NCBI GenBank assembly: GCA_049315365.1
Contig: JBMOKH010000003.1
Span: 1 to 40,929 of the forward strand
Source: Candidatus Nanopelagicales bacterium
GTDB taxonomy: Bacteria > Actinomycetota > Actinomycetes > S36-B12
DNA length: 40,929 bases
Reading direction: 5' to 3'
The position numbers and the translations under genes were made by a program. Positions 2,148 to 26,599 of the stretch are shown here, piece after piece; within the stretch, counting starts at the first letter, position 1; every line of letters starts with the position of its first letter. The notes below the pieces were generated by a model. The model worked only from the letters and a program-made list of their open reading frames with translations, was not told the origin of the DNA and ran no database searches.

Positions 2148-2930
2148 ATGGAGGCAACAGAAGCCGTTGACGCGGGCGACCGCTATCCAGCCGCGGACTA
2201 TGCAGGGTGCCCGGTTACCGTCCACGAGGCCCTTTCTGAAGGCCGTCACCTGCGGCCACCGCGATGGGGTCTTGGTGATGTGTTCATCACGCTCGGGCTC
2301 ACCGTGGTCATCGCACTCGTCGCGTCCACCCTGCTCGAGGCCGCTGGGGCGTCATTGGGGGTCATCGTCATCCTCGGCGGGCTCATCGGCTGGACGAGCC
2401 TTGCCGGCTGGCCGATCCTCATCACCAAGCTCAGGGGTAACGGGCCCCGCATTGACCTCGGACTGAGGCTGACGTGGCATGAACTCGGCTGGGGTGTGGT
2501 GACAGGCGTCATCGCACTCGTGCTGGCAGCGGTCGTGACCCTCATCAGCACTGCCATCTTCGGCGAATTCGACTCCGCTGCGGGTGAGGTGGCCCGCGAG
2601 ATTCTGGCGGAGGACAACCGTCTCACTCTGATTGGCTTTGGGCTCATGCTCATGGTTGGTGCCCCGATTGCCGAGGAACTGGCCTTCCGCGGGCTCCTGT
2701 TCGCCGGCCTGATGAAGCGAGGCATGCGTCCGTGGCTGACGGTGGTCATCACGACCTTGGCGTTCGCCCTATTCCACTTCGAGCCCGTCCGGCTCGGGGT
2801 CCTGATCGCAATTGGGCTCGTCCTTGGCATAGCCCGAGCGCGCAGTGGTTCCCTCGGAGTATCGATCGTCGCGCACGGGGTGAATAACGCCCCTGGCGCC
2901 ATTTTCGTCATGCTCGGGTTCCCAGGGTGA
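2148..2930 (+). CDS. CPBP family (CAAX/Abi) intramembrane glutamic endopeptidase
   Basis: Multiple TM segments; EELAFRG, FALFH and HGVNN motifs; TAGCGT-N6-ATG leaderless-type start. Confidence 0.92.
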   Translation: MEATEAVDAGDRYPAADYAGCPVTVHEALSEGRHLRPPRWGLGDVFITLGLTVVIALVASTLLEAAGASLGVIVILGGLIGWTSLAGWPILITKLRGNGPRIDLGLRLTWHELGWGVVTGVIALVLAAVVTLISTAIFGEFDSAAGEVAREILAEDNRLTLIGFGLMLMVGAPIAEELAFRGLLFAGLMKRGMRPWLTVVITTLAFALFHFEPVRLGVLIAIGLVLGIARARSGSLGVSIVAHGVNNAPGAIFVMLGFPG

Positions 2931-2942
2931 CACGATACGGTC

Positions 2943-3644
2943 ATGACCATCCCTGCAGGCATGGCGACACGTGGCCGGGTGCTCGTCGTCGATGACGACC
3001 TCGCACTCGCCGAGATGCTCGGAATCGTGCTGCGGGGGGAGGGTTTCGAACCGGTGTTCTGCGCTGATGGCGCGTCTGCAGTGCAGGCATTTCGTGAGAC
3101 TCAGCCCGATGTGATCCTGCTCGACCTCATGCTTCCGGGCATGGACGGTATCGACGTGTGCCGGGCAATCCGCCTGGAATCGGGTGTTCCGATCGTCATG
3201 CTCACCGCGAAGAGCGATACCGTCGATGTCGTCGTTGGACTGGAATCCGGTGCCGACGACTACATCGTGAAACCATTCAAGCCCAAGGAACTCGTCGCAA
3301 GGATCCGCGCGCGGGTCAGGCGGCATGACGACGCCTCGTCCGGGGCGCTTGCGATAGGCGACGTCGCGATCGATGTGGTGGGTCACAATGTGTCGCGGGC
3401 GGGTCGGGTCGTGGCGCTGACCCCCCTCGAGTTCGATCTGCTCGTCTGCCTGGCCAGACGTCCGGGTCAGGTCTTCACCCGGGAGATCCTCCTGCAGGAG
3501 GTGTGGGGCTACCGTCATGCAGCCGACACCAGGCTCGTCAACGTGCATGTGCAGCGACTGCGGGCGAAGATCGAGCATGACCCGGAGAGGCCCGAAATTG
3601 TGCTGACCGTTCGGGGCGTCGGCTACAAGGCCGGCCCGGCCTGA
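2943..3644 (+). CDS. mtrA: OmpR-family response regulator MtrA
   Basis: Receiver (VVDDD, LDLMLPG, KPF) plus winged HTH with VWGYRHAADTRLVNVHVQRLRAKIE; precedes mtrB-lpqB. Confidence 0.97.
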   Translation: MTIPAGMATRGRVLVVDDDLALAEMLGIVLRGEGFEPVFCADGASAVQAFRETQPDVILLDLMLPGMDGIDVCRAIRLESGVPIVMLTAKSDTVDVVVGLESGADDYIVKPFKPKELVARIRARVRRHDDASSGALAIGDVAIDVVGHNVSRAGRVVALTPLEFDLLVCLARRPGQVFTREILLQEVWGYRHAADTRLVNVHVQRLRAKIEHDPERPEIVLTVRGVGYKAGPA

Positions 3645-23803: not shown

Positions 23804-24994
23804 GTGAGCCTGCCTCCCCTCGTGGAGCCCGCCGCAGAACTGACCGTCGATGAGGTGCGCCGCTACAGCCGCCACCTGATCATCCCGGATGTCGGCATGG
23901 CCGGGCAGAAGCGGCTGAAGAACGCGCGGGTGCTGTGCGTTGGCGCAGGGGGCCTCGGCAGCCCGGCACTGATGTATCTCGCCGCGGCCGGCGTCGGCAC
24001 GCTCGGCATCGTCGAGTTCGACACGGTCGACGAGTCGAATCTTCAGCGCCAGATCATTCACGGCCAGAGCGATATCGGACGGTCTAAGGCCGAGAGCGCT
24101 CGCGACAGCGTCCGCGAGATCAATCCGCTCGTGCAGGTGAACGTCCACGAGGTTCGGCTCGACTCGACAAACGTCATGGATCTCTTCGCGCAGTACGACC
24201 TCATCGTCGACGGCACTGACAACTTCGCGACCCGCTACCTGGTGAACGACGCCTGCGTTCTGCTCGAGAAGCCCTATGTGTGGGGATCGATCTACCGGTT
24301 CGATGGGCAGGCGAGCGTGTTCTGGGCCGAGTACGGCCCCTGCTACCGCTGCCTTTACCCCGAGCCCCCGCCGCCCGGCATGGTGCCGAGCTGCGCCGAG
24401 GGTGGCGTGCTCGGCGTCCTGTGCGCGTCGATCGGCTCTATCCAGGTCACCGAGGCCATCAAGCTGCTTGCGGGCATCGGCGAGCCGTTGCTCGGACGGC
24501 TGATGATCTACGACGCGCTCGAGATGACCTATCGCCAGGTGAAGATCCGCAAGGACCCGAACTGCGCGGTCTGTGGCGCCGAGCCCACCGTCACCGAGCT
24601 CATCGACTACGAAGCCTTCTGCGGTTCCATCTCGCTCGAGGCAGCCGAGGCGGCGATGGACTCGACGATCTCCGTCAAGGACCTCAAGGTACTGCTCGAT
24701 GCCCGTGACCGCGGAGAGGACGACTTCGTGCTCATTGACGTGCGCGAGCCGGGCGAGTTCGAGATCGTGCAGATCCCCGGGGCGATCCTTATCCCGAAGG
24801 GCAAGTTCTTGGACGGATCCGCGCTCGCCGACCTGCCGACCGACAAGCGCGTGATCCTGCACTGCAAGGTGGGCGGACGATCGGCTGAGGCGCTGGCCGT
24901 CGTGAAGGGCGCCGGGTTCACCGACGCCGTGCACGTGGGCGGCGGGCTGCTCGCCTGGGTGAACCAGATCGAGCCGGAGAAGCCGACCTACTGA
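23804..24994 (+). CDS. moeZ: Adenylyltransferase/sulfurtransferase MoeZ (MoeB-rhodanese)
   Basis: RYSRHL, GAGGLG, SNLQRQ, CYRCLYPEPPPPGMVPSCAEGGVLG; rhodanese HCKVGGRS. Confidence 0.97.
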   Translation: MSLPPLVEPAAELTVDEVRRYSRHLIIPDVGMAGQKRLKNARVLCVGAGGLGSPALMYLAAAGVGTLGIVEFDTVDESNLQRQIIHGQSDIGRSKAESARDSVREINPLVQVNVHEVRLDSTNVMDLFAQYDLIVDGTDNFATRYLVNDACVLLEKPYVWGSIYRFDGQASVFWAEYGPCYRCLYPEPPPPGMVPSCAEGGVLGVLCASIGSIQVTEAIKLLAGIGEPLLGRLMIYDALEMTYRQVKIRKDPNCAVCGAEPTVTELIDYEAFCGSISLEAAEAAMDSTISVKDLKVLLDARDRGEDDFVLIDVREPGEFEIVQIPGAILIPKGKFLDGSALADLPTDKRVILHCKVGGRSAEALAVVKGAGFTDAVHVGGGLLAWVNQIEPEKPTY

Positions 24995-25014
24995 GAGGCC
25001 TCGCCGAAGACCGT

Positions 25015-25077
25015 ACGTGCGCGATACTGTCGTGAAATCCCCTTGGCGGGGCCCTTTCACGACAGTATCGAGCATGT
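25015..25077. repeat. REP-like palindrome A (downstream of the AbiEi/DUF559 gene)
   Basis: Perfect 16-bp arms CGATACTGTCGTGAAA (25022-25037) / TTTCACGACAGTATCG (25055-25070), extendable to 25015/25077. Confidence 0.9.
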
Positions 25078-25095
25078 GGGCGCGTTGAGGCGCCG

Positions 25096-26139
25096 TTATG
25101 GACGCCGGAGGCCTCGATGCTGGCGGCCGAGAGCCTCCTGGATGCGCCGAACCATGATGGTGGGCGCCACGACCGCCTCGAACCAGTTCCAGCGGATGAC
25201 GAGCCAACCCGCGCGCTCGAGGGATTCCTGGCGGCGCTTCTCTGCGATGAGGACGTCGCGAGTCTCGTACTTCACTCCGCCGTCGGCCTCGCCGATGACC
25301 TTGGCATCCGGCCAGACGAAGTCCGCCCAGTAGGTCTTGCCGTCATCGCCGGTCACCGGCACTCCGCATCGGGGCGGGGGTACTCGATGCCGGTGCATCT
25401 GCCACCGGGACAGGGATTCTAGGTGCGACTCGGCCGCGGGATCAGCGAATGGGATGAGCGTCGACAGGCCCGCAACTCCCTTGCGCGCGCTCATCTGGCC
25501 CAGAATCCGGGCGAGATGAGCGGTGGCGGTGGCGCGTGATGCCGCCGACTGAACCGCCTGCCTCACGTCGATGCCACGATTGTCATCGGACACGAGTCGC
25601 CGAAGGCCGACGTCGAGGATGGCGATCGCCTGTCCCGGCGGCAACTGGAGGGCAAGATCCAGACACGTACGGGCGACCGAGGTGCCCGGCATTCCGAGCG
25701 AGAGCGTGCGCTGGTCGTCAGGGATGATTCCTGGGTACAGGCGTATGCGCGGTTGACGCCGTCCGACGCCGGGCTGGGTCAGTTCGACAATCGCTACGCG
25801 CCCGAGGCGCTGGTCGAGGTACGTGGCGATCGGGTCGTCGTTCCACGGAAGTTGCAGGAGGAGCGCAGCGGAGCGATGGCTGGCGATCGCGCTTGGATGG
25901 CGGAGCAGGGCGGATTCGAGGGCAAGGTGGTGCCGGCCGGCTTCGTCAGCCTGGCGCCACACGTGATCTGGCAGCAGGGTTCCTGGCTGGAGCGACACTA
26001 GGCCACCGGCGGCCAGCGCCGCGCGCACCTTGCCCTCGGTCAGGCCGTGGGAGAAAGCGGTGCGTCGGGTGATGGGCCGAAAGAATCCGAGCCGGGAGAT
26101 CTCCTGGGACGTGCTGGCGATTCTCCGGGGATCGGGCAT
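25096..26139 (-). CDS. AbiEi-like N-terminal domain plus DUF559/Vsr-like PD-(D/E)xK nuclease-fold protein
   Basis: ASHRSAALL, TSVARTCLDLA, AESHLES, ADFVWP, IGEADGGVKY, EKRRQESLERAGWLVIRW; start set at ATG 26139 (CACAAT-N6-ATG). Confidence 0.85.
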   Translation of the reverse strand: MPDPRRIASTSQEISRLGFFRPITRRTAFSHGLTEGKVRAALAAGGLVSLQPGTLLPDHVWRQADEAGRHHLALESALLRHPSAIASHRSAALLLQLPWNDDPIATYLDQRLGRVAIVELTQPGVGRRQPRIRLYPGIIPDDQRTLSLGMPGTSVARTCLDLALQLPPGQAIAILDVGLRRLVSDDNRGIDVRQAVQSAASRATATAHLARILGQMSARKGVAGLSTLIPFADPAAESHLESLSRWQMHRHRVPPPRCGVPVTGDDGKTYWADFVWPDAKVIGEADGGVKYETRDVLIAEKRRQESLERAGWLVIRWNWFEAVVAPTIMVRRIQEALGRQHRGLRRP

Positions 26140-26203
26140 CGGGGAATTGTGCCTGCAGCCGGTCGCGGCCGGCAAAACTGCCGTCCACAGGCTGCCCTGC
26201 CAC

Positions 26204-26270
26204 GAACATGCACGTTGCTGTCGCGAAATAGCCGGAATCTGCCGGGAAAGCGACAGTAACGCGCATGTTC
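26204..26270. repeat. REP-like palindrome B (upstream of the AbiEi/DUF559 gene)
   Basis: 21-bp arms GAACATGCACGTTGCTGTCGC (26204-26224) / GCGACAGTAACGCGCATGTTC (26250-26270) with 2 mismatches; sequence-related to palindrome A. Confidence 0.9.
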
Positions 26271-26371
26271 AGGCGGTTGGCACGGCCTCCGGGGTTGGAA
26301 AAGCCGCGCGCTCAGTCCCCGGGACCGGCGGTGCCCTGCGGGTGCTCGCCGGCGGCGGCCCGAAGCTGTGA

Positions 26372-26599
26372 CTAGCTGCCGAGACCGGCGTCAGTGAAGC
26401 CCTCGCGCTTGTGGGCGCCGTCGCAAAAGGGCTTGTTCGCGGAGTGTCCGCAGCGGCACAGGTACGCCTTGCTCGTCTCGCGCAGGACGGTACCGTCTGC
26501 CGCGATGATCTCGACCGGGCCAACGACCTCGAGGGGGCCGTCGGCTCCCACTGTGATGGTGACGGATGGGCTGGCCGGCTGACTCGTGGATTCGCTCAT
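26372..26599 (-). CDS. CDGSH iron-sulfur domain protein
   Basis: DGPLEV...YLCRCGHSANKPFCDGAH; CACAAT-N6-ATG. Confidence 0.95.
   Translation of the reverse strand: MSESTSQPASPSVTITVGADGPLEVVGPVEIIAADGTVLRETSKAYLCRCGHSANKPFCDGAHKREGFTDAGLGS

Follow-up and report, generated by a model that had tools for sequence, protein, structure and literature searches.

A nuclease gene between two related palindromes

The window analysed here is a stretch of 40,929 nucleotides (nt) from a Candidatus Nanopelagicales bacterium of the Actinomycetota (GenBank assembly GCA_049315365.1, contig JBMOKH010000003.1, positions 1 to 40,929, forward strand). Between a moeZ-like gene and a gene for a CDGSH iron-sulfur protein it holds a cassette with a single gene of 347 amino acids, whose predicted product (P0001) combines an AbiEi-like region with a Vsr/DUF559-like nuclease domain. 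Two long palindromes of related sequence, A and B, bracket this gene. The cassette and the possible partnership between its nuclease and its palindromes are the subject of this study. The features of the locus are the following:

24995-26371, no strand: whole cassette (indel unit), made up of a spacer, palindrome A, the gene, the promoter region, palindrome B and a spacer of 101 nt
25015-25077, no strand: palindrome A, with arms at 25015-25037 and 25055-25077 and a loop at 25038-25054, 19 nt past the stop codon of the 347-residue gene
25096-26139, minus strand: nuclease gene, 347 amino acids (P0001), AbiEi-like plus Vsr/DUF559-like
25120-25446, minus strand: C-terminal ~110 residues, Vsr-like PD-(D/E)XK nuclease domain
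25450-26139, minus strand: N-terminal ~230 residues, AbiEi-like winged-helix and middle domain, the proposed specificity module
26140-26203, minus strand: putative promoter region between palindrome B and the start codon
26181-26191, plus strand (antisense to the gene): DnaA-box-like word with the core TCCACA at 26184-26189, about 50 nt before the start codon
26204-26270, no strand: palindrome B, with arms at 26204-26224 and 26250-26270, 64 nt upstream of the start codon
25488-25522, no strand: internal palindrome in the nuclease coding region, near-perfect, 35 base pairs (bp), with 17-nt arms and 1 nt between them
23804-24994, plus strand: moeZ-like gene (ThiF and rhodanese; Pfam ThiF E 9.1e-85, Rhodanese E 2.8e-13), left flank, outside the cassette
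26372-26599, minus strand: CDGSH iron-sulfur protein gene (Pfam zf-CDGSH E 2.1e-18), right flank, outside the cassette

The arms of palindrome A are 23 nt long and 91% complementary, with a loop of 17 nt; those of palindrome B are 21 nt long and 90% complementary, with 25 nt between them. Folded as single-stranded DNA, A reaches -25.5 kcal/mol (z -7.09) and B -25.6 kcal/mol (z -6.06), and 0 of 200 shuffled sequences were as good in either case. The left arms of A and B agree at 18 of 23 positions and the right arms at 16 of 18 (89%). One pair differs between them by a compensatory change from A-T to T-A, and both palindromes carry G(T/C)GAAAT at the stem-loop junction. In the whole window the arm pattern occurs six times against 1.45 expected, with 0 of 100 shuffles giving six, and four of the six occurrences are the four arms.

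The neighbours of the nuclease gene are the ThiF/rhodanese and CDGSH genes. No AbiEii (DUF1814) toxin gene is adjacent to it, and neither a methylase nor another self-protection gene adjoins it. The small overlapping open reading frames near the gene matched no Pfam family, and a search of the whole window with Rfam at gathering thresholds returned no family. The original prediction, made from the letters of the window and its open reading frames, had described two related palindromes of about 65 bp around a 347-residue gene, with these arm matches, the compensatory pair and the junction motif, and without an adjacent AbiEii partner; each of these points was reproduced.

Palindromes in intergenic DNA after two convergent genes could be ordinary terminator hairpins of moeZ and of the CDGSH gene, alike by chance or through a shared constraint, and the solo copies in related genomes described below also stand just past stop codons. 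We regard this as very unlikely. A scan of 24900-26450 found 0 terminator-like sites. Neither hairpin is followed by a T run, and their stems of 21-23 bp with loops of 17-25 nt are unlike the short G+C-rich stem with T run that defines an intrinsic terminator. Palindrome B lies 101 nt from the CDGSH stop codon and upstream of the nuclease gene, and the closest relative has neither hairpin. Furthermore, related pairs occur across the family with none in shifted control windows, and the mismatch types give no RNA signal. In one RNA library (run X19) a contig spans 24921-25141, from the end of moeZ through palindrome A to the 3' end of the nuclease gene. It is a weak hint that palindrome A does not stop all transcription, and DNA carry-over is possible.

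We aligned 29 copies of the palindrome from the genus, in which 88.4% of the cells are paired and both partners change in 7 of the 22 pairs. Covariation scores 0.126 versus 0.081 in shuffles, with 0 of 500 shuffles reaching 0.126; a palindrome-correcting mutation process could also yield such a score. The invariant columns TGC (7-9) and TG (17-18) are 10 bp, or one helical turn, apart, a spacing that can be taken as a sign of duplex recognition. G:T and A:C mismatches are equally frequent (62 vs 60), which argues for an element acting at the level of DNA over one acting at the level of RNA, and a hairpin with an RNA-level role was rejected on this ground.

Presence and absence of the cassette

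The genome of the window (G000) is 77% complete. All eight genomes of the genus contain moeZ, with the moeZ-like protein of the window 97% identical to those of the same-genus genomes. In four of them (G001, G002, G004 and G006), which we refer to as the sister clade, the gene and both palindromes are found at the same place as in the window. In the closest relative, G005, whose moeZ piece is 97% identical, the stop codons of moeZ and of the CDGSH gene are separated by 14 bp. The corresponding spacer in G007 is 96 bp long and lacks a palindrome, and G003 has one palindrome of the family directly after moeZ. In a lake metagenome (run X7), one contig joins position 24994 to 26378 via 20 other letters and other contigs cover the cassette. 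We read this G005-like junction beside the cassette contigs as two related populations and not as excision. No solo-palindrome allele, circle or inversion joint was found among the contigs of four runs, and contigs cannot reveal rare forms. The empty junctions in G005 and in the lake contig bear out the proposal that a cassette of about 1.25 kb is inserted after moeZ.

Filled and empty alleles coexisting among close relatives and in one lake sample are what a free-standing selfish gene of the homing endonuclease type might produce. Such a gene would cut a solo palindrome or an empty allele, and repair from the filled allele would copy the gene in. The fold match to the homing endonuclease I-Bth0305I, the solo palindrome of G003 at the same site and a position fixed across species would fit as well. 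However, the gene is flanked by two intact palindromes and not by the halves of a split target, there is no intron or intein context, and the nearest empty allele has no palindrome to cut. As it would also leave families of 40 and more palindrome copies unexplained, we consider this scenario improbable.

Three observations on individual loci concern this region. On the moeZ side an inner covarying pair is swapped, being T-A in G000 and C-G in G001, G002, G004 and G006 (L068, L069, L072), with the gene in the same orientation. Inversion of the whole cassette as the cause of this swap was ruled out, as gene orientation and adjoining sequence are collinear. Six records titled 'MAG: Bifidobacterium breve' (L076, L077, L079, L086, L087, L089) are syntenic with Candidatus Nanopelagicales and have flanks 88-97% identical to those of the window, so that their label looks wrong. 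The loci L097 (G009 C23) and L044/L098 (G021) come from genomes placed in different genera and have flanks 99.7-99.9% identical and 100% identical proteins, which may reflect contig mis-binning or a very recent transfer.

Pairing of gene and palindromes across the family

Homologues of P0001 were detected in 39 of the 61 related genomes. A further scan gave 75 loci spread over many Actinomycetota, among them isolates of Microbacterium, Kribbella, Leucobacter, Actinoallomurus and Trebonia. A metagenome scan with P0001 returned one locus only, a paralog with 42% identity, and no further orthologues. Of 105 loci, 102 gave a usable gene model. Clustering at 90% identity reduced these to 78, and 62 non-redundant loci remained after removing 16 clusters with too little flanking sequence. 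Hairpins with a stem of 16 or more were counted as long.

A long hairpin was found upstream of the gene in 39 of the 62 loci, downstream in 37 and on both sides in 27, and in 22 loci the two form a related pair. In control windows shifted by 1500 or 2200 nt, there were 0 related pairs out of 39-46. Over all loci, without removal of redundancy, the hairpin density per locus per 100 nt is 0.32-0.34 in the 200 nt before the start codon and 0.54 in the 100 nt after the stop codon, compared with about 0.02-0.03 elsewhere. With a slightly lower score bar we obtained 24 related pairs, 12 of them direct, four inverted and eight undecided. In these 24 pairs, a median of 61 nt separates the upstream palindrome from the gene, the median distance from the stop codon to the downstream palindrome is 3.5 nt, and the median length is 71 nt. 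Across the family the arms measure 16-38 nt and the elements 52-89 bp.

Several metagenome contigs (L054, L077, L119, L122, L127) end 10-90 nt past the stop codon of the gene, at the downstream palindrome. These contig ends may reflect repeats or strain variation breaking the assemblies.

One gene with palindromes of 52-89 bp that are imperfect, the whole occurring or missing as a unit, also recalls an integron-like cassette, in which the palindromes would be attC-type sites for a tyrosine recombinase whose gene lies elsewhere. At their outer ends, though, the palindromes vary by locus and show no common core, and the cassettes stand singly at scattered syntenic sites and not in arrays. The palindrome type furthermore tracks the protein of the cassette itself. 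Judged by the palindrome ends and the placement of the cassettes, this explanation strikes us as the least probable of those considered, with next to no chance of being right.

Palindrome type follows the N-terminal region

Different members of the family have different palindromes, also within one genome. Four paralogs in G044 have four different palindrome types, three of them as pairs and the fourth with only an upstream copy found, and the paralog on contig C411 of G000 has yet another type. Comparing syntenic homologues, we found that the proteins differ far more than the flanks. Two pairs of loci come from near-identical genomes. In the first, L094 and L096 have flanks that are about 97% identical, whereas the upstream palindrome and the first ~240 codons are 30-70% identical and the last codons with the downstream palindrome 37-52%. 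Their nuclease domains are again about 97% identical, and each genome has its own palindrome word. The second pair, L122 and L119, with flanks about 95% identical, shows the same mosaic: the N-terminal two thirds and both palindromes have diverged and the nuclease domain is conserved at the level of the flanks.

The same dependence is seen among pairs of loci with 60-75% identity in the C-terminal domain, in which palindromes are alike only at an N-terminal domain identity of about 0.55 or more. For the 46 pairs of this stratum with an N-terminal identity below 0.42, palindrome likeness is at background. Without stratification, over 1035 pairs, palindrome likeness correlates weakly with the identity of the N- and C-terminal domains (rho 0.15 and 0.17), because most of these pairs are in the noise. 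Mosaic pairs, paralogs and the stratified comparison together indicate that palindrome sequence co-varies with the protein, a point that the original prediction had listed as a check, and specifically with its N-terminal region. On this basis we propose the AbiEi-like N-terminal region as a specificity module.

Dispersed palindrome copies

Beyond the flanking pairs, each sister-clade genome (G001, G002, G004 and G006) has four to five solo copies of the palindrome, distributed over six syntenic sites, and 0 solo copies were found in G005, which lacks the gene. Two of the six sites are empty in G000; the other four (sites 1, 4, 5 and 6) could not be judged there owing to a contig end, missing flanks or paralogous matches. 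One of the sites empty in G000 has no copy in G007 either; as G007 is the midpoint-root outgroup, this speaks for a gain of the solo palindrome in the sister clade. At that site G005 has a different insert of 174 bp with a long hairpin of its own (L193, G005:C9 ~2914-3087), and it seems that palindromic elements of different kinds come to occupy the same intergenic spots just past stop codons.

Copy numbers vary widely in more distant carriers. G021 has one solo copy and one at a contig end, G041 has about three copies, G044 has at least 40 sites (40 of 52 candidates scored) and Microbacterium algihabitans 51-9c has 45 sites, some of them in arrays with a period of 139 bp. Around the homologue of the latter genome (L134; G061:C1:86155-88076) there are six copies of a 67-bp palindrome, four of them in tandem with the 139-bp period. 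A Y1/RAYT transposase (Pfam: PF01797), the enzyme associated with repetitive extragenic palindromes (REPs), was found in 0 of five carrier genomes, with 6 of 14 control genomes scoring.

The AbiEi-like and Vsr-like protein

The only Pfam family in P0001 is DUF559 (Pfam: PF04480) at residues 269-335, with 24.5 bits against a curated cut-off of 20.6. Pfam AbiEi domains gave no match to P0001 itself at E-values up to 0.1, and the AbiEi model of PADLOC matched weakly (E 1.3e-4). We aligned 47 homologues for conservation and for the structure model; the AlphaFold model of P0001 has a predicted local distance difference test (pLDDT) value of 92.8. Foldseek matched the first ~240 residues to the AbiEi antitoxin 6y8q_A (E 1.3e-4, 240 columns) and to Rv2827c (1zel_A, E 1.2e-3). 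The last ~100 residues matched the catalytic domain of I-Bth0305I (3r3p_B, template modelling (TM) score 0.71), NGO0050 (3hrl, TM 0.78) and Vsr (1cw0_A), and a profile search found 3hrl_A at E 9.9e-4. The Pfam families over the 47 aligned proteins are DUF559 (26 proteins), MTES_1575 (15), AbiEi_4 (13) and AbiEi_1 (6). The suggested architecture of a DNA-binding, AbiEi-like part and a DUF559/Vsr-like nuclease is thus upheld by the DUF559 match above its cut-off and by the Foldseek matches in both halves. E237, E241, E284, D286 and R303 are invariant in the 47 sequences, and D273 and K290 are present in at least 90% of them.

The ratio of non-synonymous to synonymous substitution rates (dN/dS) against same-genus orthologues is 0.18-0.27 for the nuclease gene and 0.02-0.03 for moeZ, from which we conclude that purifying selection maintains the nuclease gene and that it nevertheless evolves fast. 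The orthologue in G006 (G006:C16:88-1113) has an in-frame TAG and a dN/dS of 0.27-0.43, and may be decaying. The internal palindrome in the coding region is also present in the orthologues L032 (462-496) and L033 (2117-2153), at 77% protein identity.

Putative promoter region and DnaA-box-like word

In the promoter region we identified by eye, on the minus strand, a -35-like TTGCCG (26170-26175) and a -10-like CACAAT (26146-26151), 18 nt apart. A scan of 24900-26450 with the sigma-70 consensus called no promoter. The -10-like hexamer ends 6 nt ahead of the ATG, which suggests a leaderless mRNA for the nuclease gene, and a TTG-type hexamer is also found in relatives.

In most homologues, TGTCCACAG-like words lie on the antisense strand about 50 nt before the start codon, on the gene side of the upstream palindrome. 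Among the 41 non-redundant loci whose alignment reaches the N-terminus, 36 have a TCCACA core between -130 and +20. For five other windows in the flanks the figure is 0-2 of 41, and within the gene 7 of 245 windows contain the core. This TGTCCACAG-like word equals the DnaA box of actinobacteria and Escherichia coli as given in Table 1 of PMC4285127. In G000, TCCACA-type cores occur at 0.26 per kb genome-wide, and eight TCCACA cores lie within ~310 bp right after dnaA (C320:42917-43226, with the Bac_DnaA domain at C320:41822-42307), a region that is probably the chromosomal origin. Two of the 59 T[GA]TCCACA words in this genome (C38:916 and C404:2483) adjoin further DUF559 paralogs, on the expected promoter side.

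A palindrome adjoining the promoter and another at the stop codon also suit the main rival explanation. P0001 would here be an autoregulated stand-alone nuclease for defence, repair or another role, and the palindromes would be its operators and transcription stops that insulate the inserted gene, with no role in spread. Scattered copies would then serve as additional sites for binding, or they would be REP-like elements without a relation to the gene. Repression of the own promoter via inverted repeats is described for AbiEi-type proteins (PMC7319586). The specificity region changes rapidly between close strains, as in defence genes, and the loci are syntenic. The repeats of AbiEi, however, are about 23 bp long, and elements of 52-89 bp with arms of 16-38 nt are much larger. 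Transcription stops would be expected to carry the T run that both window hairpins lack, and a defence nuclease is not accompanied here by an adjacent methylase or self-protection gene. Co-variation with the N-terminal region is just as strict for the downstream copy as for the upstream one, and a role as operators would hardly account for the dispersed families of at least 40 and of 45 copies, some of which stand in tandem arrays. We therefore rate this explanation as rather unlikely, while taking it more seriously than the other alternatives.

A proposed partnership of nuclease and palindromes

Comparison of the sequences has established how the cassette is built, that it is present or absent as a unit, that gene and palindromes are paired across the family, that palindrome type co-varies with the N-terminal region, that relatives have dispersed copies and that the five carrier genomes searched lack a RAYT. 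By analogy with the REP-RAYT partnership, the best-supported reading of this material is that the nuclease recognises its own palindromes, with an enzyme unrelated to RAYT transposases, and we hold it with slightly more confidence than doubt.

Several results weigh against this reading. Long hairpins are missing on at least one side in 35 of the 62 loci and on both sides in 13, though some loci scored as hairpin-less carry degenerate ones (L094 upstream, L096 on both sides). The genome of the window, at its 77% completeness, yielded no copy beyond the two flanking ones, and two of the sister-clade solo sites are empty in it. The co-variation comes from two mosaic pairs and a few clades, and relatives are not independent. 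The histidine that we take to be typical of the DUF559 catalytic motif seems to be a lysine in P0001. The empty site of G005 has no palindrome and no recognisable footprint, so a route of entry or exit is not readable there. Finally, synteny is kept by nearly all homologues and also by the sister-clade solo copies, so that movement, if any, must be rare.

The original prediction had gone further and held that the protein recognises, maintains or spreads its palindrome family. Flanking pairs, co-variation and the dispersal in relatives agree with it, and maintenance and spread stay at the level of a proposal. The further copies that it called for exist in relatives, both solo and dispersed, whereas in the 77%-complete genome of the window we found the two flanking copies only. 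It had named three findings that would jointly speak against it, and one of these, the lack of other copies in the genome, is what we observed. The other two we did not observe: homologues have paired flanking palindromes family-wide (22 related pairs in 62 loci vs 0 in shifted controls), and the hairpins do not appear as mere terminators.

Binding, cleavage, autoregulation, spread and control by DnaA are steps that we infer from this arrangement. The cassette is self-contained: it starts with a long palindrome, goes on with the DnaA-box-like word, the putative promoter and the only gene, and has another copy of the palindrome where the gene stops. The AbiEi-like N-terminal region of P0001 may bind both arms of its own palindrome in duplex DNA, probably as a dimer, and the Vsr-like domain at the C-terminus would introduce a nick or a cut at the bound palindrome or next to it. 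Binding at the promoter-side palindrome could lead to autoregulation, as in AbiEi. Nicks or breaks, in turn, could lead to repair-linked copying, exchange and loss of palindromes and cassette. In this way the protein and its palindrome family might persist together, as REPs do with a RAYT gene, with an unrelated enzyme and longer palindromes (52-89 bp).

A bolder version is that these cassettes form a new class of selfish or domesticated elements of Actinomycetota. An AbiEi-Vsr nuclease would cut its own palindromes, cut-and-rejoin or break-induced copying would move or exchange the cassette and seed REP-like copies, the DnaA box would time expression to replication, and specificity would evolve by the joint swap of the DNA-binding region and both palindromes. 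We put this forward tentatively, as a possibility that we think is more probably wrong than right in its full extent.

If the partnership is real, a second, unrelated enzyme has arrived at the same association with a palindrome family, and a large group of 'DUF559 / AbiEi domain' proteins would gain a function. Where the N-terminal region and both palindromes have been swapped in nature, experiments on specificity are already at hand, and such enzymes might serve as long-site nucleases that are programmable by swap. The DnaA-box-like word hints at a connection between the handling of palindromes and the initiation of replication. In a screen for inverted repeats, a table in PMC9881135 lists DUF559 genes as enriched among predicted inversion targets with an odds ratio of 14.3, and the accompanying passage does not discuss this enrichment further. 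The cassette could explain why DUF559 is enriched among genes flanked by inverted repeats. We found no published description of the association between nuclease and palindromes in the literature searched, supplementary files excluded.

Comparison with known systems

PMC3733652 links REP-type palindromes to a single family of enzymes, the RAYT transposases, and its text mentions neither actinobacteria nor Streptomyces. The cassette resembles the REP-RAYT system in that a gene, inherited vertically and as a rule present once, has its own palindromic repeats on both sides, which can scatter in intergenic DNA, and in that each gene variant has its own repeat type. The enzymes differ, being AbiEi-like plus Vsr-like PD-(D/E)XK in the cassette and an IS200-like HUH Y1 transposase in RAYT. 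The palindromes of the cassette are also longer, with 52-89 bp compared with the 20-40 bp stated for REPs in the same source (PMC3733652), and no shared GTAG or CGTC head is evident in them. Copy numbers from two to 45 or more and hosts in the Actinomycetota set the cassette further apart.

With AbiEi (6y8q; Rv2827c, 1zel) the cassette protein shares the fold of its first ~240 residues, and relatives have AbiEi_4 and AbiEi_1 matches. Like AbiEi, it probably binds inverted repeats beside its own promoter. In contrast to AbiEi, it has no adjacent AbiEii nucleotidyltransferase, a nuclease is fused at its C-terminus, and the repeats are far longer and present at both ends of the gene.

The IS200/IS605 elements are likewise small and have hairpin ends that are recognised by the encoded enzyme. 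They use single-strand HUH chemistry, have subterminal hairpins of another size and occur in many identical copies, whereas the enzyme of the cassette belongs to an unlike class and the cassettes are syntenic.

I-Bth0305I (EDxHD) and Vsr share with P0001 a Vsr-like catalytic fold that forms the C-terminal part of a DNA-binding protein with several domains. I-Bth0305I, a homodimer, has a footprint of ~60 bp on a pseudopalindromic site (PMC3239194) and is a precedent for this fold. The gene of the cassette, however, lies outside any intron or intein, its presumed sites are intact on both sides and its N-terminal region is unrelated. The cassette is therefore separated from RAYT systems by its enzyme, from AbiE systems by the missing toxin and from homing endonuclease genes by its intact sites.

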